Shown piece after piece: positions 2,680 through 25,162 of a DNA stretch of 32,396 nt. The notes beneath the pieces were generated by a model that worked only from the letters and a program-made list of their open reading frames with translations, ran no database searches and was not told the DNA's origin. The stretch covers positions 1 through 32,396 of the forward strand of contig CAYMUZ010000168.1 in the NCBI GenBank assembly GCA_964393875.1, in the 5' to 3' direction. The translations under genes were made by a program, and so were the position numbers. The stretch comes from an uncultured bacterium. Lineage in GTDB: Bacteria; Omnitrophota; Omnitrophia; Omnitrophales; Aquincolibacteriaceae. The stretch's first letter is position 1. Every line of letters begins with the position of its first letter.

Positions 2680-3571
2680 GCCTGTTTTGGTTCAAGAAAC
2701 CCTTGAACTCCTTAAACTGCGACCCGCAATGACGGTGGTCGATGGAACCCTTGGCGGTGGAGGTCACTCTCTTGAAATCGTTCGACGAATTGCTCCCGGA
2801 GGCCACTTGATCGCCCTTGACAGAGACCCCGATGCATTAGAGCGGGCACAAAAAAAACTTCCAACGGACTGTCGCCTGAGCTTTGCGAATGAAAACTTCA
2901 AAGATCTACCCGGTGTTCTCCGGCAGCTTAATGTTTCATCGGTGGATGCCGTTCTCTTGGACGTAGGGTTCTCGTCCGATCAGGTTGAGGAGGCTTCGAG
3001 AGGGTTTAGTTTTGACAAGGAGGGGCCGCTGGACATGCGTTTGAATCAACAGGAAGGGATTTCAACAGCAGCGGATTTCTTGGCGGAACTTTCGGAGGGC
3101 GAGCTTGAAGCTGTTTTTCGTAACTATGGCGAAGAGAGATTTGCCCGGCGGATTGCTAGAGCCGTTTGCTGGCATCGGGATAAGAATCCGATTGAGACGA
3201 CTTTTCAGCTCGCGGAGGTGGTTGTTTCAGCCATTCCGGGAGCCCGATCGCGTGGTCCCCGTCCTTTTTTTAAAAGACATCCTGCCATGAGAGTTTTTCA
3301 AGCACTGCGGATAGCGGTGAATGATGAGTTGGGAAGTCTTCAGGAAGGCTTGGCGAATATTTGGCCGCATGTCCATTGCGGCGGGCGCCTGGGGGTGATT
3401 TCGTTTCACTCCCTCGAAGACCGTATCGTTAAGCGAAAGTTTCTCGCATGGAAAGCGGAGGGCTCTGCAGAGATCGTGACGCGTAAACCGGTTCAGCCTG
3501 CGGAAGCGGAGCTTCAGGAGAACTCCAGAGCGCGTAGTGCAAAATTCAGAGTGGCGGAAAAAAAATCATGA
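2669..3571 (+). CDS. rsmH: 16S rRNA (cytosine1402-N4)-methyltransferase RsmH
   Basis: HKPVLVQE N-terminus, VDGTLGGGGHS SAM-binding motif, LDVGFSSDQ, and FHSLEDRIVK. The TTG start overlaps the STAS stop by 11 nt. The exact start is uncertain. Confidence 0.92.
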   Translation: MPHKPVLVQETLELLKLRPAMTVVDGTLGGGGHSLEIVRRIAPGGHLIALDRDPDALERAQKKLPTDCRLSFANENFKDLPGVLRQLNVSSVDAVLLDVGFSSDQVEEASRGFSFDKEGPLDMRLNQQEGISTAADFLAELSEGELEAVFRNYGEERFARRIARAVCWHRDKNPIETTFQLAEVVVSAIPGARSRGPRPFFKRHPAMRVFQALRIAVNDELGSLQEGLANIWPHVHCGGRLGVISFHSLEDRIVKRKFLAWKAEGSAEIVTRKPVQPAEAELQENSRARSAKFRVAEKKS

Positions 3572-8229: not shown

Positions 8230-8304
8230 CGGGATGTAGCACAGTTTGGCTAGTGCGCTCGGTTCGGGACCGAGAGGTCGCAGGTTCAAATCCTGCCATC
8301 CCGA
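8230..8304 (+). tRNA. tRNA-Pro (anticodon CGG)
   Basis: Perfect cloverleaf of 75 nt. Acceptor stem is CGGGATG/CATCCCG, D stem GCAC/GTGC, anticodon stem CTCGG/CCGAG with loop TTCGGGA (CGG, G37), variable loop AGGTC, T arm GCAGG-TTCAAAT-CCTGC, discriminator A. CCA is not encoded. Confidence 0.95.
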
Positions 8305-8326
8305 CACTCTCTATAAAACAAGGATT
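8287..8326 (+). repeat. 40-bp direct repeat, copy 1 (last 18 nt of tRNA-Pro plus 22 nt downstream)
   Basis: caaatcctgccatcccgacactctctataaaacaaggatt is identical to 8488-8527, at an offset of 201 bp. Confidence 0.95.
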
Positions 8327-10893: not shown

Positions 10894-11286
10894 ATGAAGA
10901 AATTATGGGCACTCCCCCTGCTTATTTTTTTTCTGGTGAGCTTTTCCTCACAGGCATCTGCAGACGATCTCAAATCTTTTTGCTCGCAAACTTGTGGCTT
11001 GTGGCCGAAAATGTGTGCCACGGGGACGTTGTGCCTGAAGCTGTGCAAAACGCCCCAGCGCATCATGAAAGGCTGCTACTCCAACAAAGTCCCCGTCGAT
11101 ACAAAACTGCCGGATATCGCGATGACGAAACAGCAATTCTGCCAGGCCCTGTGTGGTAAACCACCGCTTGTCTGCGCCGTCATGACTTACTGCACGCAGA
11201 GCTGCGGAACGAAGCCGGAAAGTATGAAAGCTTGCATTGAGCAGGGCATTTCCCTCGATACTTACCGGCCAAAGATTATTGGCTAA
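10894..11286 (+). CDS. secreted cysteine-rich tandem-repeat protein (function unknown)
   Basis: Signal peptide MKKLWALPLLIFFLVSFSSQASA. Two 53-residue repeats follow, each with the identical spacing CX3CX6CX5CX3CX9C (C30..C61 and C83..C114). It is the first gene of the sensor/efflux locus. Confidence 0.75.
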   Translation: MKKLWALPLLIFFLVSFSSQASADDLKSFCSQTCGLWPKMCATGTLCLKLCKTPQRIMKGCYSNKVPVDTKLPDIAMTKQQFCQALCGKPPLVCAVMTYCTQSCGTKPESMKACIEQGISLDTYRPKIIG

Positions 11287-11350: not shown

Positions 11351-12025
11351 ATGCGGATTTTGATTATTGAGGATGACCCCAAGACCGCAGGCTATTTAAA
11401 ACAGGGCCTTTCTGAAAATGGCTATGCTGTGGACGCAGCCTTGACGGGCAGTGACGGACTGGCGTTGGCGCATTCCAAAGAGTATGTGCTGATGATCCTG
11501 GATGTCATGATCCCGAAAATGGATGGCTGGAGCATTCTGGCAGAATTGCGTCGCGAAGGGAACAAAACGCCGGTGCTTTTTCTCACGGCCCGTGATTCTG
11601 TCGAAGACCGGGTGCGCGGTCTCAAGCTGGGTGCGGATGATTACCTTGTGAAGCCCTTTTCTTTTTCAGAACTACTTGCTCGCATGGAATCTATTTTGCG
11701 CCGAGGAAACTTCTCGCAGCCGCTGCAGAAAATTCAAGTGGGCGATTTGGAAATTGATTTCACGAATCATCGTGTGACGCGGGCGGCGAAGCGGATCGAA
11801 CTGACCCAAAAGGAATTTCTACTCCTCTATCTTTTGGCCCGCCATCCGGGCAGGGCTCTCTCACGGACGCTGATCGCCGAACAGGTGTGGGATATGAATT
11901 TTGACAGTGATACCAATGTGGTGGATGTTGCGATTCGACGGCTGCGCGCCAAAGTGGATGAACCTTTCCAGCGCACATTGATTCATACCGTCCGTGGCAT
12001 GGGGTATGCGCTTGAAGCACGTTAG
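11351..12025 (+). CDS. OmpR-family response regulator, heavy-metal (CusR/CopR/CzcR) type
   Basis: MRILIIEDD...LDVMIPKMDGW...LTARDSVEDRVRGLKLGADDYLVKPFSFSELLARMESILRRG closely follows CusR. The C-terminal winged helix contains VRGMGY. Confidence 0.93.
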   Translation: MRILIIEDDPKTAGYLKQGLSENGYAVDAALTGSDGLALAHSKEYVLMILDVMIPKMDGWSILAELRREGNKTPVLFLTARDSVEDRVRGLKLGADDYLVKPFSFSELLARMESILRRGNFSQPLQKIQVGDLEIDFTNHRVTRAAKRIELTQKEFLLLYLLARHPGRALSRTLIAEQVWDMNFDSDTNVVDVAIRRLRAKVDEPFQRTLIHTVRGMGYALEAR

Positions 12026-13442
12026 AAATCTGTTGTCGTCCTCCATGGTGTTGCGTCTCGCACTGCTTTATGCCGTCTCTTCCTTTGTGATTCTATCCCT
12101 CTCCTTTGGCTATCTCTACGGAGCGCTCGGCCGCAATCTTAAAGCGGATGAAACCACGTTTTTCAAGGAACAAATGCATTTCTTGAAGGAGATTATTCAC
12201 GATAGACCCGCAGAGTTTGAAGAGGTGAAGGAGAAAATTAACCTGGAAAATTCTGTGACGGGTGTCCCGCGGTATTTTATGCGGGTCCTGGATGATGCCC
12301 GGCAGACTTTGACGGAAACCCGGGGAATGCCGGTATCCGCAAATCGATTTCCGGAATTTTTGTTTTCACACGATGAAAATGAATCTCTGACGGAAGTGAC
12401 GCAAGCAGGGAAAACTTATTTGCTTTTTGGGTCCGGATGCCGCTTTGGGAATACGGGCCCCTGGGCATCCATTCAACTGGCTGCTGATATTTCAACCGAT
12501 AACCGGATTCTTTTGGATTATGGCAGGAAACTTGCGGGAGTCCTGGTGCTGGGGGTGTTTGCTGCGGGTTTTGCAGGGGCGCTGATCAGCCGCCGTGGAC
12601 TTTTGCCATTGAAAAAAATGGCCGAGGCCGCACAAAAAATCCATGCCGAAAATCTTCAGCAGAGTATTTGCGAGAAAGATTGGCCTGAAGAATTACAACA
12701 GTTGGCAGTGGCCTTCGAAGACATGCTCCGCCGGCTCGAAAAATCTTTTACGCAGATTTCACGATTTTCTGCAGACCTGGCGCATGAACTCCGGACGCCC
12801 GTGAATAATCTCATCGGAGAGACCGAAGTCATTTTATCGAAACCTCGCGATGCGGAGGACTATCAAAAGCTTTTGGGCTCGAATCTTGAGGAGTATGAGA
12901 AACTTTCAAAAATCATTGAGAGCATGCTTTTTCTTGCCCGCGCGGAAAACACCGAAATTCCGGTGAAGCGCGAGCCGCTTGATCTCGCGGGGGAAGTCGA
13001 CCGCGTGAAGGACTATTACGGCGCTTTGGCGGAAGAAAAAGGGCTCACGATGAGCCGCAATGGCGAGGGGGTCTTGTTCGCCGATCCCACCCTTTTTCGC
13101 AGGGTTTTGACGAATCTGATTTCAAATGCGATCAAGCACGCAGATCGTGGACAAGTCACTGTTGAAATCATGGAACACCCGGATCACTCCGTGGAGCTTT
13201 CCGTTTCAGACATGGGGCCTGGGATTTCTCCCGCGGATCTTCCGCATATTTTCGACCCATTTTACAGGGTTGATCCCGCAAGATCGTCTGTCGTAGAAGG
13301 GACCGGGCTTGGATTGGCCATTGTTAAATCGATTATGAATCTGCACCGTGGTTCTGTCACTGCCGAGAGCGTGCCAGGACAGGGCACACGCATTCTGCTT
13401 TTTTTCCCACCGCACCTCAAAGATGACAACATTGTAATCTGA
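12006..13442 (+). CDS. heavy-metal sensor histidine kinase (CusS/CzcS type)
   Basis: Two TM helices flank a periplasmic domain of about 130 aa, followed by HAMP. The H-box FSADLAHELRTPVNNL is typical of the heavy-metal sensor kinase family. N, G1 and G2 boxes are present (NAIKH, DMGPGI, GTGLGLAI). The start is ATG 12006 or GTG 11994; both overlap the regulator gene. Confidence 0.9.
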   Translation: MRLKHVRNLLSSSMVLRLALLYAVSSFVILSLSFGYLYGALGRNLKADETTFFKEQMHFLKEIIHDRPAEFEEVKEKINLENSVTGVPRYFMRVLDDARQTLTETRGMPVSANRFPEFLFSHDENESLTEVTQAGKTYLLFGSGCRFGNTGPWASIQLAADISTDNRILLDYGRKLAGVLVLGVFAAGFAGALISRRGLLPLKKMAEAAQKIHAENLQQSICEKDWPEELQQLAVAFEDMLRRLEKSFTQISRFSADLAHELRTPVNNLIGETEVILSKPRDAEDYQKLLGSNLEEYEKLSKIIESMLFLARAENTEIPVKREPLDLAGEVDRVKDYYGALAEEKGLTMSRNGEGVLFADPTLFRRVLTNLISNAIKHADRGQVTVEIMEHPDHSVELSVSDMGPGISPADLPHIFDPFYRVDPARSSVVEGTGLGLAIVKSIMNLHRGSVTAESVPGQGTRILLFFPPHLKDDNIVI

Positions 13443-13493
13443 CCGTCATCTTCCTGCCTTCTGCGGATGTTATGCTACAGACCAGGAGGATCT

Positions 13494-14927
13494 ATGGTTG
13501 GACTGTGCATTCCCACTCGAAAGATTCTGCCGCGTGACTCCGTGCTTGCAGGTGTCTTGCTCGGTGTCTTCTTACTCGGCGGATGCGCCCGGTTTCACGC
13601 AGAAACATTACGCCCCTCACAAACATTGGCTGATTTTGAGGCCCGTACCCTCGAAAGCCCTGACCTCAAACAATTCATCGAGTTTTGTACCCAACGCCCA
13701 ATGACTGCATGGCCGGTCAAAAAGTGGGACCTCGATTCTCTAACTCTGGCGGCCCTTTTTTATCATTCTGATCTCGAGGTAGCGCGAGCGCAATGGCAGG
13801 TTGCCAGGGGTGCGATTGTAACCGCGGGAGAGCGGCCCAACCCCACCGTGGGATTCAACCCCGAATACAAGGCCGGTGGAACGAGCGGGATTTCGCCGTG
13901 GCTTTACGGCCTGACTTTTGACCTGCCCGTGGAAACCATGGGTAAGCGAGGCCGGCGTATCGATCAGGCGCGGCATCATGCCCGAAGCGCAGCCCTTAAC
14001 ATTGCGTCTGCAGCCTGGCAGGTGCGCAGCCGGCTTCACACTGCATGGATTCAACTTAAAACAGCGCGAGCAAATACGGCTTTGTGGAAAGAACAGCTAG
14101 AGCTGCAAGAGGGCTGTCTTCAATCGCTCAACGGTGCTGAAAATGGAGACAGCCTTGCACCGCCAGATCGACTTCAGCTCGAAATCACATGGCGTCAAAC
14201 ACAAATAAGTTTTTTAGAAGCCCGCCGGCAGTCGGAGGATGCGGAAGTTCAGCTGGCGGAATCTCTGGGAATTCCTGTGCATGCCGTACCGCGGGTTGCG
14301 CTAGAACCAAACTCGGGTCGGGCGCAGAAGTTTTCAAAAAAAGAAATACGTCAGCGTGCCCTGACCCAACGTCCCGATTTATTGGGACTGCTCGCCGACT
14401 ACGAGGCCAGTCAGTCTGCGTTGCAGCTTGAGATTGCTCGGCAGTACCCGGACGTTCATCTTGGGCCGGGATATACCTGGGATCAGGGACAGAATAAGTG
14501 GTCTGCGGGTGTGAGCATTACTCTGCCCGTTTTCAATCACAATCAGGGACCCGTGGCAGAAGCTAAAGCCCGGCGGGAAGAGGCACGGTTGCGTTTCACC
14601 GCATTGCAGGAAAAGATTATTTTTGAGGTGGAGCGGGTTTTCAGCGCCTACGAATTTTGCGAGCAAAAGTGGGAGATGGCGCAAAGCCTTTTGGAGGTGC
14701 AGAGGCAGCAGGAGGAGATCCATAAACAATTTTTAATGGAAGGGGAGGCGTCGCGTTTGGCCGCGTTGAATTTTAAACTGGCGCTTAAGACGGCTGAGTT
14801 TGCTGCTGCGGATGCCGGAAGTAAACGGGATCTAGCGTTGGCCGCGCTTGAAGATGCCATGATGGCGCCGCTTGACTCTCAATTATTTCCGCTCTCCGGA
14901 GAAAAACGGGCGAAGGTCTTAAAATGA
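13494..14927 (+). CDS. TolC/CzcC-family outer membrane efflux lipoprotein
   Basis: ATG 13494 is 4 nt after AGGAGG (13484-13489). Lipobox LLGGC. The OEP-type repeats are visible (LAALFYHSDLEVARAQWQVARG ... ERPNPTVGFNPEY; second half LPVFNHNQGPVAEAKARREEA). Confidence 0.88.
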   Translation: MVGLCIPTRKILPRDSVLAGVLLGVFLLGGCARFHAETLRPSQTLADFEARTLESPDLKQFIEFCTQRPMTAWPVKKWDLDSLTLAALFYHSDLEVARAQWQVARGAIVTAGERPNPTVGFNPEYKAGGTSGISPWLYGLTFDLPVETMGKRGRRIDQARHHARSAALNIASAAWQVRSRLHTAWIQLKTARANTALWKEQLELQEGCLQSLNGAENGDSLAPPDRLQLEITWRQTQISFLEARRQSEDAEVQLAESLGIPVHAVPRVALEPNSGRAQKFSKKEIRQRALTQRPDLLGLLADYEASQSALQLEIARQYPDVHLGPGYTWDQGQNKWSAGVSITLPVFNHNQGPVAEAKARREEARLRFTALQEKIIFEVERVFSAYEFCEQKWEMAQSLLEVQRQQEEIHKQFLMEGEASRLAALNFKLALKTAEFAAADAGSKRDLALAALEDAMMAPLDSQLFPLSGEKRAKVLK

Positions 14928-15406
14928 GGCAACGTGGATATGACACTTTGGCGAGGGAGCCAGTTTTAAAAATAGTTGCGGCGTCCTTCCTTTTTTTGAT
15001 TTGTATTTCCGGCAGTGTCTTTGCGGAGCCGGAAGAGGGACGCAAAACCCATTGGGTGACTCAGGAGGGGGAAACTCTTTTATGCTTCTCTCAAGCCGAG
15101 ATCGTTGACAATGCAATCAAGACGGAGATCGCCCCGGCCTCGACGGTTGGGTTGCTCGCACCTTCAACGGCGATTGTTTGGCGGAAAGGCCACCCGTGGG
15201 TGTATGTCCAAAAAAAGGAGAATTGTTTTCTTCGCACAGAAATATCTCTCGTTTCTGACGGACCTTCCACAAAACCCATTTGTCCCCAGCGCGATTGTCA
15301 GCGGGTGCTCGCGAACCCCGTCTTAAAAAATAAAATGGTAGTGCAGGGCGCCGCACAGCTTTTATCGGAGGAGTTCATCAATGAAATCGGGGAGGATGCG
15401 GAATGA
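14924..15406 (+). CDS. short periplasmic protein in the membrane-fusion (adaptor) position; only MFP N- and C-terminal segments recognisable
   Basis: ATGA overlaps at both ends (14924-14927 and 15403-15406). Signal peptide IVAASFLFLICISGSVFA. FSQAEIVDNAIKTEIAP resembles the MFP N-terminal strand. APSTAIVWRKGHPWVYVQKKENCFLRTEISL...MVVQGAAQLLSEE resembles the MFP C-terminal domain. At 160 aa there is no room for lipoyl or alpha-hairpin domains. Confidence 0.65.
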   Translation: MRQRGYDTLAREPVLKIVAASFLFLICISGSVFAEPEEGRKTHWVTQEGETLLCFSQAEIVDNAIKTEIAPASTVGLLAPSTAIVWRKGHPWVYVQKKENCFLRTEISLVSDGPSTKPICPQRDCQRVLANPVLKNKMVVQGAAQLLSEEFINEIGEDAE

Positions 15407-18400
15407 AGTCTGAAGCCGGCGGTTTCTTGAATGGACTGGTTGAGCTCTCACTTCGTTTTCGAGTGATTGTGCTGGTTTTGGCCTTGGGTCTGATGGGTTA
15501 CGGATTTTACAGTTTATTGAATGCCAAGTACGATGTTTTTCCTGAGTTTGCAGATCCGCAGATCACGATTCAAACTCAAGCGGTTGGGCTGTCGCCCGAA
15601 CAGGTTGAGACGCTGGTCACACTGCCCATTGAAAGCTCGATGAATGGAGCGGCGGGCCTAGAGACCCTGCGATCCAACTCGATTCAGGGCCTTTCAGTCA
15701 TCACCGCGATATTTCACTCCGACACCGATATTTACCGGGCGCGGCAGATCATTACCGAAAGGCTTGCCTCGATTGCTTCAAAGCTTCCGCAGGGAGTGCA
15801 GGCTCCGGTGATGGTGCCTCTGACCTCCGCGACGGGCGATCTTGTGAAAATAGGGCTGATATCCCATAAACATTCGCTGATGGAGCTTCGGACTCTGGCC
15901 GATTGGACGCTCAAGCCGCGCTTCTTAGCGGTACCAGGGGTGGCGAAGGTCTCGATTTTTGGGGGAGAGGTGAAACAACTCCAGATTCAGATCGATCCCG
16001 ACCGTTTGCGGCAGTACCAGCTGTCGGTTGACGATGTTTTTGCAGCGGCGAGGCGGGCAACGGGGGTACGAGGTGCCGGTTTTGTGGATACCGGAAACCA
16101 GCGTATTGTACTGCAGGCAGACGGACAGACACTGACGCCTGAAGCTTTGGGCGAGAGCATTCTTGTGGTGGGTGCCAACTCCGGAGTGACGTTCGTCGCA
16201 ACGCTGGCCGATGTGGCAAAAATCGTTGCGGCTCCCGATCTGCCCATCAGCGCGGCCACGGTCATGGGAGAGCCGGGTGTGACCTTGAATATCTGGGGGC
16301 AGTATGGCGCTAATACGTTGGAAGTGACGCGGTTGATCGAGCAGGCCGTGGTCGAATTAAAACCCATGCTTGATCAGGAAGGCGTCGAACTTTACCCTGT
16401 TCTTTTTCGCGCTGCTAGTTTTATTGAGATTGCCACAAGCAATCTTAAAACATCCTTGTGGATGGGCGGTTTGCTTGTGGGGGTGATTTTATTCTTGTTT
16501 TTGTGGGATGTTCGAACCGCGTCGATTTCTGTAACGGCGATTCCCTTGTCGTTGGTTGCCGCGGTGATCGTGATGCAGAAATTGGGTTTTAGTCTCAATA
16601 CGATGACTCTCGGAGGTTTGGCGATTGCCATTGGGGAAGTGGTGGATGATGCCGTGATCGACGTGGAAAATATTTTGCGCCGCATTCGCGAGAATGCCCA
16701 TGCGGCACGGCCCAAACCCGCGTTTCAGGTGGTGCTTGAAGCCTCTCTGGAAGTTCGCAGTGCCGTGGTTTATGCCACCTTTGCGGTGATTCTAGTGTTT
16801 ATTCCGGTGTTGACGATGTCCGGATTAGCCGGAAAATTTTTTGCGCCTCTCGGCATCGCTTACATTCTTGCCATTCTTTCCTCCCTGGGGGTGGCCGTGA
16901 CCTTGACGCCGGCGCTCTGTCTTATTTTTTTCAAAAAAGCGGATCTGGAAAATGAAGAGCCTCGTTTTTTACAAGGATTGAAAAGGCAGTACCGGCAATG
17001 GCTTCAGCAGGTAGAAAAATATCCACGAATAGTCATGATGGCACTTTTTCTCGTCAGTTTTGCCGGTCTTGCGGCGGGGCCTTTTTTGAAAACGGAGTTT
17101 TTGCCTGAACTTCAGGAAGAGCATTTTTTAATTCATATGGCGGCGGTGCCCGGCACTTCGATTGAAGAATCACTGCGCATCGGTAACCGGGTCACGCAAG
17201 AGTTGCTCAAACTGCCGTGGATGCGCTTTGTGGCACAGCAGGTGGGCAGGGCGGAGGCCGACGATACATTTGGTCCGCATGCGAGTGAGTTTCAAGTGGA
17301 TCTCCGGCCCCTGAGTAAAAAAGAAGCAGAGAGGGCTTTGCCCGCGATTCGCCAGGTGCTTTCAAAGTTTGTGGGGGTGCGCTTTGCGGTTAATACCTTT
17401 TTGGCGGAACGCATTGAAGAAACGCTTTCTGGATACACGGCCCCGGTGGCAATTCATCTCTACGGAGACTCGCTGGATCTTTTGGATCAAAAAATTACAG
17501 AGGTCGCGCGGGTGCTCGAAAAAGTGTCTGGGGTGACCGATCTTCAGGCGCAGTCTCCGCCGGGAGCGCCTGAACTTTCCGTCCGCTTGCGGCCACTGGA
17601 TTTACAGAAGTGGGGTTTTGCGGCGGTGGATGTGCTCGACTCGATAAAAACAGCCTACCAGGGCAATGTGGTTGGGCAAATTTACGAGGGGAGCCGAGTG
17701 TTTGATGTTTCGGTTATTCTAGAGCCGCAATTGCGGAAATCGATTCCCGATGTGGGTGGTTTACTGCTGAAAAGTCCGGCAGGGTTGTATGTGCGCTTGA
17801 ATCAGCTTGCGGATATTCAGGAAACCGCCGGTCGTTACGGCATTCTTCATGAGCATGCACGGCGTGTTCAGACGCTGACCTGCAATGTTCATGGGCGTGA
17901 TGTCGATTCTTTTGTGCGTGAAGCCAGGCGGAGTTTGGAGAAGGGGGTGACATTGCCGGCGGGCATGTACCTTGAATTTGCGGGAACGGCCGAGGCGCAG
18001 GATCGTTCACGCCACGATTTGATGGTGCACTCGCTCGCGGCCGGGATGGGCATTCTTTTGCTTCTCGGGATTGTCCTGAATCATCCGCGCAACGTGATGC
18101 TCGTTTTACTTAATTTGCCATTTGCGCTCACAGGCGGCGTGTGGGCGTTGTTGGCGACGAGAACGGCTTTGTCGCTTGGCGCGCTCGTTGGATTTGTTAC
18201 CCTTTTTGGAATTACGCTGCGCAATTCCATTATGATGATTTCGCACTACACCCACTTGATTCAGGAAGAACAGAAGCTTTGGAATGTGGAGACAGCCATT
18301 CAAGGTGCGTGCGAACGGCTGGGGCCGATTTTGATGACGGCGCTTGTGGCAGGGATCGGACTTTTACCTTTGGCGCTTGGGAGTGGCACGGCCGGGCGTG

Positions 18401-18525
18401 AGATCGAAGGGCCTATGGCCATTGTCATTCTCGGCGGACTTGTCACATCCACCCTGCTCAATCTTCTTGCGCTTCCCGCGCTTGCCCTGCGCTACGGCTC
18501 CTTCCAGCGAGAGGAGTCTGTCTAA
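15403..18525 (+). CDS. CzcA/CusA-family RND efflux permease
   Basis: 1040 aa with a 12-TM RND layout. The N-terminal block FPEFADPQITIQTQAVGLSPEQVETLVTLPIE...LRSNSIQGLSVITAIFHSDTDIYRARQIITERL follows the CzcA-family pattern. The TM4 motif is AIGEVVDDAVIDVEN. Confidence 0.95.
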   Translation: MKSEAGGFLNGLVELSLRFRVIVLVLALGLMGYGFYSLLNAKYDVFPEFADPQITIQTQAVGLSPEQVETLVTLPIESSMNGAAGLETLRSNSIQGLSVITAIFHSDTDIYRARQIITERLASIASKLPQGVQAPVMVPLTSATGDLVKIGLISHKHSLMELRTLADWTLKPRFLAVPGVAKVSIFGGEVKQLQIQIDPDRLRQYQLSVDDVFAAARRATGVRGAGFVDTGNQRIVLQADGQTLTPEALGESILVVGANSGVTFVATLADVAKIVAAPDLPISAATVMGEPGVTLNIWGQYGANTLEVTRLIEQAVVELKPMLDQEGVELYPVLFRAASFIEIATSNLKTSLWMGGLLVGVILFLFLWDVRTASISVTAIPLSLVAAVIVMQKLGFSLNTMTLGGLAIAIGEVVDDAVIDVENILRRIRENAHAARPKPAFQVVLEASLEVRSAVVYATFAVILVFIPVLTMSGLAGKFFAPLGIAYILAILSSLGVAVTLTPALCLIFFKKADLENEEPRFLQGLKRQYRQWLQQVEKYPRIVMMALFLVSFAGLAAGPFLKTEFLPELQEEHFLIHMAAVPGTSIEESLRIGNRVTQELLKLPWMRFVAQQVGRAEADDTFGPHASEFQVDLRPLSKKEAERALPAIRQVLSKFVGVRFAVNTFLAERIEETLSGYTAPVAIHLYGDSLDLLDQKITEVARVLEKVSGVTDLQAQSPPGAPELSVRLRPLDLQKWGFAAVDVLDSIKTAYQGNVVGQIYEGSRVFDVSVILEPQLRKSIPDVGGLLLKSPAGLYVRLNQLADIQETAGRYGILHEHARRVQTLTCNVHGRDVDSFVREARRSLEKGVTLPAGMYLEFAGTAEAQDRSRHDLMVHSLAAGMGILLLLGIVLNHPRNVMLVLLNLPFALTGGVWALLATRTALSLGALVGFVTLFGITLRNSIMMISHYTHLIQEEQKLWNVETAIQGACERLGPILMTALVAGIGLLPLALGSGTAGREIEGPMAIVILGGLVTSTLLNLLALPALALRYGSFQREESV

Positions 18526-18616
18526 GAATCCTGAATTTGGTACTTTTCCCTCTATGTCTCAGGCCCCCCCCTTGCATTTTGTGGACATGTCAGGTACCTT
18601 TCAACTAGAGACAGAA

Positions 18617-18734
18617 GCTTTTGAAAAGGGCAAACCACGGCTCGAGGGCTCTTCGCAAATAGCGAAGCCGTAAGGGTGGGACGCAAAACTATGGGGCCTT
18701 TTCTTTCGAAAAGGTCAGCCGGCTGCCAAAACGC
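18617..18734 (+). promoter_or_regulatory. candidate c-di-GMP-I (GEMM-I) riboswitch aptamer
   Basis: Three conserved blocks are present: AAAAGGGCAAACC (18624-18636), GGGACGCAAAAC (18678-18689) and CAGCCGGCUGCC (18716-18727). Closing helix GCUUUUG (18617-18623) pairs with CAAAA(C)GC (18727-18734). Hairpin GGCCUUUUC-UUUC-GAAAAGGUC spans 18695-18716. ACGGCU (18637-18642) pairs with AGCCGU (18666-18671). It lies in the 5' leader of a PilZ gene. Judged from memory of the Vc2 aptamer, not from a covariance-model search. Confidence 0.6.
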
Positions 18735-18850
18735 AATCTCATTGCTGGGGTGGCCGTCTTTGCTTGTGGCGGCGGAAAGGGCAGGAAAGAGTGGCACATT
18801 TGGTTCAGATGAATCGGTTTAGCACCTGGGTATGCGCGGTCGGAAATGGA

Positions 18851-19294
18851 ATGCTCGCGCTTTTGGGCTTGCGTGGAGAGGATCGGCGGAAGGGGGTTCG
18901 GGGCGATGAAGATCGCAGAGTTGCACCGAGAGTGCCTACGCGCAATCTTCTCAAGATTGTGTCGGTGAATGGAAAACCGGTGACCCAGCTTTTTAACCTT
19001 GTCAATATTTCCGAGACTGGTTTTCGTTTTATCAATTTTCAACAGTTCCACGAGGGGACTGTGGTTCAGGGAGTTGTGAATGTGCGCGAGTTTGATCAGC
19101 AGGTGCCTGTGGATGCGCGCATCGTTTGGTCGGAACCGCTCACGCTGAAAGTGGTCTGGGTGGACAAACATGACCGCAAGAGATCTCACACCCGGCATGC
19201 TGGGGCGGCCATTATGGCCATGGCCGATTCTGACCGCTACATTTTACGCCACTTTGTCCACCACAAAATGCAGATGCAGTGGGCCCAAAGCTAA
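18851..19294 (+). CDS. PilZ-domain protein (c-di-GMP receptor type)
   Basis: RRVAPR (RxxxR) is followed 24 residues later by NISETG (D/NxSxxG), the bipartite PilZ c-di-GMP-binding signature. The start is uncertain: in-frame ATG 18851, ATG 18809 or TTG 18764. Confidence 0.75.
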   Translation: MLALLGLRGEDRRKGVRGDEDRRVAPRVPTRNLLKIVSVNGKPVTQLFNLVNISETGFRFINFQQFHEGTVVQGVVNVREFDQQVPVDARIVWSEPLTLKVVWVDKHDRKRSHTRHAGAAIMAMADSDRYILRHFVHHKMQMQWAQS

Positions 19295-19390
19295 GGTAAG
19301 ATCCCTGCCCTTCTCAAATTCTCTCTTTCCGTGTTCCCGCTGAAAAGACGCGACAGAATCGTGTCCCTTTCGTAGAATAGCCCCTCTTCT

Positions 19391-19528
19391 ATGTCTTCCC
19401 AGAACCCTGAACTTGAATGGTTTCAGTTTGCATGTCTCGACTTTCCATCGATTTGGCGAACGGTGAAGAGTTTTGCGACCTGCGATGAAATTCGAAAGCT
19501 GAGCAACGCAAGACAGGTGGAAAAATAA
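19391..19528 (+). CDS. possible 45-codon small ORF coupled to the trmH-like gene
   Basis: ATG 19391 to TAA 19526-19528, encoding MSSQNPELEWFQFACLDFPSIWRTVKSFATCDEIRKLSNARQVEK. The stop overlaps the next ATG as TAATG. It is below the 60-aa cutoff of the ORF track and no homology is known to me. Confidence 0.3.
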   Translation: MSSQNPELEWFQFACLDFPSIWRTVKSFATCDEIRKLSNARQVEK

Positions 19529-21368: not shown

Positions 21369-24186
<2,818 letters not shown>

Positions 24187-24241
24187 GCCTTCCTTTTTTC
24201 AACGGATCAACCCTCAATCCATTTCAGCCGATAGAGTCAGT

Positions 24242-25162
24242 ATGAGTCCTCAGGAATCACCTTTTATTCTCTGGCTTCGGGCGCGCCGCCAAGAATTTCT
24301 GAATTACCTTTCCGTTGAAAAAGGTCTTGCCGCCAACACGCTGCAAGCTTACGGTCACGACCTGAATTGTTACTTTGAGCATTTGAAGTCAGCCGGCCTT
24401 CCGGCTTGGGAACAGATCACTCGCCGGCACATTCTTGATTTTATGTCTGCTGAGAGACGCCGGGGGATTGAAACCGTCTCATTGGCCCGGCGGCTTGTAG
24501 CGGTGAAAGTCTTTCACCGCTTTCTCGTGCAAGAGCGTTTTACTCTTGAGGATGTGACCAGCGTGCTTGAATCTCCCAAACTTTGGAAGAAACTGCCGCA
24601 GTTTTTAACGCATCAGGAAATGGAACGCATTTTAAAAACACCGGAGGCACAAAGCAGCAAGGCCACGCGTCTCCGCGATGGTGCGATTTTAGAGTTGCTG
24701 TATGCCACGGGAATGCGTGTGTCCGAACTAACCTCGCTGCGACTCGAAGATTTGAGCCTTGAGAATGGATTTATAAAATGTCGAGGCAAGGGGAGCAAAG
24801 AGCGTATTGTGCCGTTAGGCCGGCATGCGGTGGATGCCTGCCGGGCGTATCTTGAGAAGGTGCGACCGAAGCAGAACCCGGTAACGTCGTCTGTTTTTAT
24901 CGGCCGTGCGGGCAAGGCGCTGACGCGCCAAAGCGTCTGGCATCTTGTGCGCCGGTCGGCAAAAACCGCCGGTATTCAAAAAACGCTCAAGCCGCACACG
25001 TTTCGTCACTCCTTCGCGACGCACCTTCTTGAAGGCGGTGCGGATCTTCGAATTGTACAAGAGCTGTTAGGGCACGCTGATATTTCTACGACACAAATCT
25101 ACACGCACGTGACTCGTGACCATCTCAAAGCTGTCCATGCGCAATTTCATCCGCGGGGGTGA
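24242..25162 (+). CDS. xerD: tyrosine recombinase XerD
   Basis: Contains LSVEKGLAANTLQAYGHDL, ELLYATGMRVSELTSL, KGSKERIVPLG and RHSFATHLLEGGADLRIVQELLGHADISTTQIYTHV (the R..HxxR..Y catalytic set). ATG 24242 is preferred; the ORF-track start 24134 lies inside ligA. Confidence 0.92.
   Translation: MSPQESPFILWLRARRQEFLNYLSVEKGLAANTLQAYGHDLNCYFEHLKSAGLPAWEQITRRHILDFMSAERRRGIETVSLARRLVAVKVFHRFLVQERFTLEDVTSVLESPKLWKKLPQFLTHQEMERILKTPEAQSSKATRLRDGAILELLYATGMRVSELTSLRLEDLSLENGFIKCRGKGSKERIVPLGRHAVDACRAYLEKVRPKQNPVTSSVFIGRAGKALTRQSVWHLVRRSAKTAGIQKTLKPHTFRHSFATHLLEGGADLRIVQELLGHADISTTQIYTHVTRDHLKAVHAQFHPRG

Follow-up and report, generated by a model that had tools for sequence, protein, structure and literature searches.

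A predicted class-I c-di-GMP riboswitch with a branched first arm in the leader of a PilZ gene from an uncultured Omnitrophota bacterium

Does the long gap ahead of a PilZ-domain gene in an uncultured Omnitrophota bacterium encode a riboswitch for cyclic di-GMP (c-di-GMP), the same second messenger that the gene product is predicted to bind, and in which direction would such a switch act? The gene lies on the 32,396-nt contig CAYMUZ010000168.1, which was analysed whole and is called the window here, downstream of a gene for an RND efflux pump that ends at 18525. An earlier note on this DNA had proposed a GEMM-I-like riboswitch in the gap from three sequence blocks, and reading of the window from 18300 to 19400 located all three exactly where it had put them: AAAAGGGCAAACC (18624-18636), GGGACGCAAAAC (18678-18689) and CAGCCGGCTGCC (18716-18727). 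A scan of the whole window with 4227 Rfam families at their gathering thresholds returned two matches, a tRNA at 8230 and, as the sole non-tRNA match, the c-di-GMP-I family RF01051 at 18619-18730 of the plus strand. With 43.7 bits (E = 1.5e-5) this match exceeds the gathering score of 35, and its alignment covers the full model (positions 1-87 of 87). It is not a chance match, and the proposed GEMM-I identity is thereby borne out. From the evidence presented below, the leader most likely contains a class-I c-di-GMP riboswitch of the receptor-less type that works as a transcriptional ON switch. Table 1 lists the coordinates of the features.

Table 1 Features of the PilZ leader and gene in the window.
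Feature	Position	Strand	Basis or detail
Putative promoter	18572..18600	+	-35 TTGCAT 18572-77, 17-nt spacer, -10 TACCTT 18595-600
P1 5' strand GCUUUUG	18617..18623	+	Pairs with CAAAA(C)GC 18727-18734, C18732 bulged
c-di-GMP-I (GEMM-I) aptamer	18619..18730	+	RF01051, 43.7 bits
G corresponding to Vc2 G20	18629	+	Unpaired G directly 5' of G-C/C-G pairs (cmscan)
Expanded first arm P2	18635..18679	+	Rfam; 37 nt aligned where the model has 8
GAC internal loop, 2 bp and AAA linker	18680..18687	+	Invariant columns, cmscan
Second arm P3	18687..18724	+	cmscan alignment; distal 9-bp hairpin 18695-18716
Predicted expression platform (terminator-like hairpin and tail)	18720..18767	+	Folding, orthologue comparison
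C corresponding to Vc2 C92	18726	+	cmscan, invariant
Ribosome-binding region	18783..18811	+	Shine-Dalgarno-like AGGAAAGAG 18783-91; candidate starts TTG 18800, ATG 18809
Single-domain PilZ gene	18800..19294	+	PF07238, motifs, predicted fold

The assignment within the clan was examined by a permissive Rfam scan of 18500-18900. The c-di-GMP-II model, which the earlier note had named as a control, gave no match even at E <= 10, and the only other clan member to match was the GGC variant RF03167, at 39.9 bits and far under its own gathering score of 59. Every testable defining feature of c-di-GMP-I was found in the element, and those of GEMM-Ib, the GGC variant and c-di-GMP-II were absent. The first arm of the class (2 bp, AAA/GAC loop, 6-bp stem and GNRA tetraloop) is present with an insertion, for which the comparative support is modest. 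The 5' regulatory configuration is also present: a promoter lies upstream, a hairpin at 18720-56 has 18720-27 in common with the aptamer, and the PilZ gene follows. Only the tetraloop receptor, a feature of type 1 RNAs, is missing, and its positions are gaps in the cmscan alignment; this is no argument against membership because a type 2 RNA with a GUAA loop is expected to lack the receptor. Judged by its sequence, the element is a genuine class-I c-di-GMP riboswitch that had escaped annotation, and it is a typical representative of this well-known RNA class except for an unusually branched first arm.

Comparison was made across ten orthologous loci, the window and nine others (L001, L167 and L245 to L251). 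Searching with only the PilZ protein gave one relative, P0002 (64% identity), on contig L001, which is syntenic downstream (PilZ, PilZ2, CxxCxxCC, SpoU, PIF1, phosphoesterase). Metagenomes were scanned for a pattern in which a GEMM-I copy has an extended first arm and keeps its GNRA loop in the usual place, and this led to L167, an orthologous locus (PilZ of 50% identity, PilZ2, CxxCxxCC) with an RF01051 match of 52.1 bits directly upstream, and a profile of three PilZ orthologues recovered 13 more family members. One family member, the only orthologue with such a label, is named Candidatus Omnitrophica/Omnitrophota by NCBI. The orthologue contigs share the order GCS2, tRNA-Pro, hydrolase, RF-1, small open reading frame (ORF), leader, PilZ, PilZ2, CxxCxxCC, SpoU and PIF1. 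An aptamer was found in eight of the ten PilZ leaders, so that seven leaders join the window in the alignment of orthologues that had been suggested, with pairing kept in P1, in the terminal mini-stem P2c, in P3 and in the hairpin of the expression platform. The RF01051 scores are 43.7 for the window, 44.1 for L245, 41.0 for L246, 39.6 for L247 and 40.8 for L248; the L250 copy (38.4 bits) exceeds the cutoff and was detected with laxer filters, and the L251 copy is obviously homologous and stays below it. Seven of the eight copies thus pass the Rfam cutoff, and the aptamer appears conserved in a small Omnitrophota-like clade. BLAST of the leader against plasmids found nothing. The pattern GGCAAACC-N32-55-GGGACGCAAA was searched in a genome collection; among the matches listed, most were chance occurrences inside coding sequence, and the genome of the window was not among them.

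The predicted ligand follows from the binding pocket. In Vc2, the RF01051 prototype from Vibrio cholerae, the contacts to c-di-GMP are made by G20, A47 and C92 (PMC6140456, PMC4744006); G20 contacts G-alpha, and C92 is the Watson-Crick partner of G-beta (PMC6140456). The C44-G83 interhelical pair is universal in the class (PMC4744006), and the linker between the two arms is "virtually always AAA" (PMC1950547). The Vc2 numbers were mapped to model columns in this analysis via the cmscan alignment, and the mapping is consistent with the consensus of the GGC variant, which departs from the canonical one exactly at the position called 47. By this mapping, the window has G rather than A at position 20, A (A18685) rather than G at position 47, and C at position 92. 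The interhelical pair is present as C18682 (Vc2 C44) and G18718 (Vc2 G83), the AAA linker is 18685-87, and the two G-C pairs between loop and linker join 18683-84 with 18630-31. G18629, A18685, C18726, C18682 and G18718 are all invariant in the eight orthologous copies. Because all five contact and interhelical positions are canonical and invariant, the ligand is predicted to be c-di-GMP and not cGAMP. The window further shares with Vc2 the GGCAAAC, GGGACGCAAA and CAGCC..GCUGCC blocks, the arrangement of two arms and P1, and the position in a 5' untranslated region.

The helices around this core were compared among the eight copies. P1, GCUUUUG with CAAAA(C)GC, pairs as the earlier note had described; its inner UUUG/CAAA part is invariant, and the next outer pair occurs as five standard pair types among the eight. 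The 9-bp hairpin at 18695-18716 that it had pointed out does exist and is the distal part of P3. Its account of the first arm holds for the extension itself but not for the folding, since the proposed ACGGCU/AGCCGU helix and the CUUCGC hairpin that it was to enclose both need A18666-G18667 and cannot coexist. The arm had also been described as lacking a GNRA cap, which proved mistaken: GUAA is present at 18670-18673, four nucleotides 5' of GGGACGC, the canonical position of the tetraloop. In the arrangement favoured here, a closing stem (CCAC 18635-38 with GUGG 18676-79) is followed by two inserted hairpins, P2a (GGCU-cgag-GGCU, 18639-50) and P2b (CUUCGC-aaaua-GCGAAG, 18651-67), and by P2c (CC-GUAA-GG, 18668-75). 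The 4 bp of CCAC/GUGG and the 2 bp of CC/GG, together with GUAA, rebuild the canonical 6-bp stem and tetraloop, and P2a and P2b together add 29 nt to the 5' strand, where they separate base pair 4 from base pair 5.

This organization of the first arm recurs in all eight copies as CCAC(G/A)G, a variable stretch of 29-44 nt, and (C/U)(C/U)-GNRA-G(G/A)-GUGG. The tetraloop is GUAA in seven copies and GAAA in L246. P2c is paired in 100% of the eight sequences, with a double change from C-G to U-A in L250 and a change from C-G to U.G in L251. The P2b sequences are unrelated among orthologues (GGUGU/ACACY, GGCCGG/CCGGCU, CUUCGC/GCGAAG) yet always pair. The four-way junction is the unconstrained minimum free energy (MFE) structure in four of the eight (L167, L246, L247 and L250); in the other four it is 1.0-3.1 kcal/mol less stable than the MFE (-14.7 versus -16.5 for the window). 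The ACGG/CCGU helix of the long-arm alternative is disrupted in L246 and L167, and no second change restores the pairing. The four-way junction with its two inserted hairpins is favoured, by a modest margin, over the AAAUA-capped long arm, and all informative substitutions agree with it. The L250 aptamer (391-505) has GGCUAACC for GGCAAACC and GGGGCGC for GGGACGC, in an internal loop that is otherwise invariant; these two first-arm changes might be coupled through a tertiary contact, or this aptamer might be drifting out of function.

In the second arm, the base pairs at the foot of P3 are A-U, AxC, C-G and (U/C)-G, with an A18688xC18723 mismatch, G18718 and a bulged A18691-U18692. Distal P3 hairpins differ in length and sequence among the orthologues, and all eight fold (-4.6 to -14.8 kcal/mol). 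Vc2 is a type 1 RNA whose GAAA tetraloop docks into an 11-nt receptor, whereas the window has GUAA, no such receptor, two extra hairpins that make a four-way junction of the first arm, and two bulges near the P3 base that are type 2 features (Weinberg 2007). Receptor-less GEMM RNAs were described with a GYRA loop and two bulged residues near the P3 base (Weinberg 2007; PMC1950547), and the window matches this type in its GYRA loop, in the missing 11-nt receptor and in the two bulges. The bulged residues are AA in most copies and AU in the window.

Upstream of the aptamer, TTG(C/T)A(A/T)-17-TAnnTT was found by regular expression at the same place in nine of the ten loci, and L250 has TTGTAA-17-TATTCT. 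The sequence of the spacer varies and its length of 17 nt is fixed in all ten. This would be a sigma-70-like promoter, from which transcription is inferred to start at about 18607, some 10 nt before P1. The promoter is also kept in the two loci whose leaders have no Rfam match at E <= 1, L001 (959-1161) and L249 (1-135); in both, a Shine-Dalgarno (SD) sequence follows after about 35-45 nt, with no aptamer or terminator. In the alignment of the window with the L001 leader, the footprint CTTGCATTTT is followed by a diverged stretch of 9 nt and by TCAGGTAC.TTT, and the SD of L001 comes about 35 nt later. Because L001, the closest relative of the window, has no aptamer and more distant relatives carry it, the parsimonious reading is that the common ancestor had the aptamer and that at least two deletions between promoter and SD removed it.

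The expression platform directly overlaps the aptamer. Its hairpin has the 5' arm CGGCUGCC (18720-27), the 3' arm GGGGUGGCCG (18749-56) and the tail UCUUUGCUUGU (18757-67), and its loop holds an inner hairpin, GCAAU-cuc-AUUGC (18733-45). In the unconstrained fold of the leader, the hairpin 18720-18756 forms with about -15.6 to -18 kcal/mol. Because its 5' arm is the 3' end of the aptamer (the P3 3' strand, C92 and the first P1 pair), aptamer and hairpin are mutually exclusive. The earlier note had foreseen both a second hairpin overlapping the 3' end of the aptamer and exclusive pairing, and the orthologues agree with it: a conserved helix joins 18720/21-18727 with 18749-18755/56, and in six of the seven relatives the retained hairpin has the form of a canonical intrinsic terminator. 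An overlapping hairpin follows the aptamer in all eight copies, its seven core pairs form in every one, three one-sided changes keep the pairing, and RNAalifold recovers the terminator helix from the eight sequences unaided. The stem is GGCUGCC-loop-GGCAGCC in L245, L246, L247, L248 and L250 and GGUUGCCA-loop-UGGCAGCC in L167, and in these six, 6-8 of the first 8 tail nucleotides are U. In L251 the same terminator stem precedes the tail GUUGUUAUUUU, which has 5 U in the first 8 nt.

These features point to a simple mechanism. Transcription from the conserved sigma-70-like promoter would start at about 18607. Without ligand, 18720-18727 would pair with 18749-18756 to form the terminator hairpin ahead of the U-rich tail, and transcription would stop before the PilZ start codon. 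With c-di-GMP bound at G18629, A18685 and C18726, P1 and P3 would hold 18720-18727, the terminator could not form, and RNA polymerase would read into the PilZ gene. In this way c-di-GMP would induce its own predicted receptor, a coherent feed-forward arrangement. Such a layout has precedents. A terminator whose 5' side overlaps the 3' side of the second hairpin was described for 78 of 322 GEMM instances, with ON regulation predicted (Weinberg 2007; PMC1950547), and Bc2 of Bacillus thuringiensis, upstream of the cap gene, is an experimentally proven ON-type GEMM-I that acts by antitermination (PMC4933901). Bc2 and the window share an intrinsic terminator that competes with the aptamer. They differ in phylum and in the regulated gene (a collagen adhesin versus a PilZ receptor); moreover, read-through was shown for Bc2 (PMC4933901), whereas in the window the mechanism is inferred from sequence only, and so are the binding of the ligand, the direction of the switch (ON), how well the weakened terminator works and its role in the cell.

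Several observations weigh against this reading. Folding of the single sequence was no better than that of shuffles (z = -0.32 for 18610-18740 and 0.15 for 18600-18830) and did not reproduce the aptamer; z-scores of this kind are uninformative, as is usual for ligand-stabilised folds. RNAalifold on the eight orthologous sequences did not recover the aptamer either, with a covariation term of about 0. Covariation is thin, the core being invariant within the clade and double changes occurring at only two pairs, and support for the aptamer fold therefore comes mainly from the Rfam model. The AxC mismatch near the P3 base is common to seven of the eight copies, with A-U only in L167; its C18723 is also a Watson-Crick partner in the terminator. 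No gene for a GGDEF or EAL protein was found within the 32-kb window. The terminator of the window is weaker than those of the relatives, in that two Watson-Crick pairs (U-A and G-C) have become wobbles (U.G and G.U), the loop spans 21 nt and the tail is UCUUUGCUUGU in place of U5-8, and a simple terminator scan of 18400-19500 found nothing. On the other side, 95.1% of the cells of the eight-sequence alignment are paired, versus 21-50% for controls with slid partners, and compensatory changes occur in P1 and P2c. Of 500 shuffles, 11 gave a covariation score of at least the observed 0.110, which is suggestive only, given eight related sequences with a nearly invariant core.

The weak terminator raises the alternative that the aptamer is real and the switch has largely decayed here, with a leaky terminator, near-constitutive PilZ expression and little effect of c-di-GMP. 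The 3' arm of the window (GGUGGCC versus GGCAGCC in 7 relatives), its tail of 4-5 U in the first 8 nt (versus 6-8 in six relatives) and the terminator scan without a match are in line with decay. So are the remodelling of the locus, by a 7-kb insertion upstream and by deletion of PilZ2 and most of the CxxCxxCC gene downstream, and the outright loss of the riboswitch in two related lineages. However, the hairpin equals those of the relatives in stability (-15.6 versus -13.5 to -23.6 kcal/mol), has gained an extra C18720-G18756 pair at its base as well as the inner hairpin, and still forms every core pair. L251 has a similar G-interrupted tail, and all contact nucleotides of the aptamer are intact, which argues for continued selection. 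We consider decay unlikely. The same weak tail would fit translational control, in which the ligand alters the accessibility of the SD region (18775-18791) and the hairpin 18720-56 serves as sequestor or anti-sequestor, and in MFE folds the U-rich tail 18757-67 can indeed pair with the purine-rich SD region 18781-90. This pairing forms whether or not the aptamer is enforced, however, and enforcement lowers the accessibility of the SD (18783-91) from 0.46 to 0.22 with no rise. In L245, L248, L250 and L251, moreover, the SD lies 100-200 nt past the hairpin with unrelated sequence between, and the strong U-tracts of six relatives would have no role. With no rise in SD accessibility, and with a distance from hairpin to SD that ranges from 30 to about 200 nt across orthologues, translational control was rejected as very improbable.

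A departure in ligand, to 3'3'-cGAMP or another dinucleotide and perhaps owing to the expanded first arm, was weighed as well. GEMM-I variants of altered specificity do exist (GEMM-Ib, GGC and UAU variants), and in E-value mode the top clan member for this region was the GGC model. The cGAMP-sensing GEMM-Ib RNAs of Geobacter, which belong to the same Rfam clan and have the same overall fold, carry A in place of G20 (PMC6140456), whereas G stands there in the window and its seven orthologues, and wild-type G20 discriminates strongly against cGAMP (PMC6140456). The GGC variant, of the same clan, has GCGAA where the window has GCAAA, and its partial match of 39.9 bits compares with a cutoff of 59. 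With G at 20, A at 47 and C at 92, and with a predicted c-di-GMP receptor as the regulated gene, another ligand is extremely unlikely. The class-I c-di-GMP ON switch thus remains the preferred reading.

Some further observations concern the region between hairpin and start codon. The tail UCUUUGCUUGU is complementary to the purine-rich SD region CAGGAAAGA (18757-18790); this pairing may either reduce the translation of transcripts that have passed the terminator or be coincidental. In L250, the spacer between terminator and SD (about 540-680) contains a direct repeat of about 30 nt, GCACGCAACUUACGCGACUGUAAGAAGCG, in two copies about 100 nt apart, and the corresponding spacers of L245 and L248 hold unrelated hairpins. 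Clear terminators with good U-tracts occur elsewhere in the window, e.g. at 26359-77 and 31592-71.

The identity of the downstream gene, which had been called a PilZ gene from its motifs, is supported in agreement by Pfam, the motifs and the predicted fold. The ORF matches PF07238 with 31.1 bits (cutoff 22.5), and the RRxxxR and (D/N)xSxxG motifs (RRVAPR and NISETG in the window) are invariant in 12 orthologues. An AlphaFold2 model from 12 sequences, with a mean predicted local distance difference test score of 73, shows a beta-barrel flanked by N- and C-terminal helices. A sequence search of the protein against PDB and NCBIfam gave no match. In a Foldseek search of the PDB with the model, the top 17 matches were all PilZ domains, many of them solved with c-di-GMP; the best was 4xrn_B (E = 5.4e-4), and MotI, MrkH, YcgR, VCA0042 and PlzA were among the PilZ matches. 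On sequence and model, the product is a true single-domain PilZ protein, with predicted c-di-GMP binding. The start of P0001 was placed by NCBI at ATG 18851 (147 aa). About 15-17 residues before this codon are conserved among orthologues, and the column is Ile or Leu in most of them, so this start is probably too short and the real one TTG 18800 or ATG 18809. Orthologues begin at TTG about 8 nt past GGGAGG, with the N-terminus (M)N..RF; in the window, TTG 18800 follows the SD AGGAAAGAG with 8-nt spacing, and ATG 18809 gives MNRF. The analysis thereby corrects the annotated gene start.

Class-I c-di-GMP riboswitches are a large and well-studied class, and one more instance is in itself unsurprising. 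What distinguishes this case is that a gene for a predicted c-di-GMP receptor appears to stand under c-di-GMP control at the RNA level, and eight orthologous loci of this uncultivated clade keep the association. The recurrent GEMM-associated gene families of Weinberg 2007 (PMC1950547) do not include PilZ, and no report of the GEMM-I and PilZ pairing was found in the part of the literature that could be searched. Among about 25 other insert-bearing GEMM-I copies, a small and biased sample, none precedes an ORF with the PilZ motif pair. The ten loci also form a natural experiment on riboswitch loss, with the aptamer present or precisely deleted and the terminator strong or weakened.

The first arm is of wider interest for the class, as the canonical 6-bp stem and tetraloop tolerates two whole hairpins inserted into one strand. 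Other insert-bearing GEMM-I copies were found in metagenomes (L166, L170, L174, L181 and L214) and in a genome (L120); RF01051 scores are 43.1 for L170, 47.9 for L174, 46.7 for L181 and 45.7 for L120. These copies have UCCGCC..GGCGGA and xCCGCC..GGCGGx hairpins after base pair 2, followed by a 4-bp stem and GNRA. They resemble the window in carrying one or two hairpins in the 5' strand of the first arm and in keeping the terminal stem and GNRA loop, and they differ in that the insertion comes after 2 bp instead of 4 bp, the insert sequences are unrelated, and no PilZ-motif ORF lies downstream. Because a different two-hairpin insertion recurs in unrelated metagenomic copies, expansion of the first arm may be general in the class and under-described. 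The clade's own copies score 38-52 bits, with one below threshold and one lost by default filters; covariance models and annotation pipelines appear to under-score insert-bearing copies. A bolder proposal is that the junction is a functional subclass feature and not neutral decoration, tuning co-transcriptional folding or ligand kinetics or replacing the tetraloop-receptor contact, and that riboswitch and PilZ protein are a conserved pair making a two-tier sensor, in which a high-affinity RNA gate licenses a protein receptor of lower affinity. We regard this combined proposal as doubtful.

The genes around the riboswitch have been rearranged in the lineage of the window. The stretch 11351-18525 encodes the response regulator (11351-12025) and histidine kinase (11994-13442) of a two-component system, as well as an efflux operon of the heavy-metal RND type (OEP 13467-14927, a 160-aa ORF 14924-15406, pump 15403-18525). 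The pump is of the AcrB/CzcA type (CusA/CzcA-like) and matches TIGR00914 with 677 bits, just under the cutoff. This 7-kb module sits between the conserved orf130 (10894-11286) and the PilZ promoter. It looks like an insertion, because in L245 and L246 no more than a few hundred nt separate orf130 and RF-1 from the leader. On the other side, relatives have PilZ2 and the CxxCxxCC gene between PilZ and SpoU, and both are absent in the window (19295-19527). A C-terminal CxxCxxCC remnant of 24 residues survives just upstream of SpoU (19433-19504; 54% identity to L246, E = 3.5e-6), which shows that the window lost PilZ2 and most of the CxxCxxCC gene by deletion. PilZ directly adjoins SpoU in L250, too.

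Elsewhere in the window, the tRNA is a tRNA-Pro (anticodon CGG, 8230-8305, 68.4 bits), and a nearly identical tRNA follows GCS2 in L246 (216-289). Downstream of ligA, 24134-25162 encodes an XerC/D-like tyrosine recombinase with Phage_integrase and SAM-like N-terminal domains, which is probably a chromosomal dimer-resolution enzyme and not the integrase of a mobile element. Outside the window, paired GEMM-I aptamers were noted on three contigs: both are Rfam-positive in L220 (316-423 and 588-696) and in L165 (5146-5268 and 6015-6116), and L141 has one copy that matches the pattern only (2733-2859) and one that is Rfam-positive (2940-3069).

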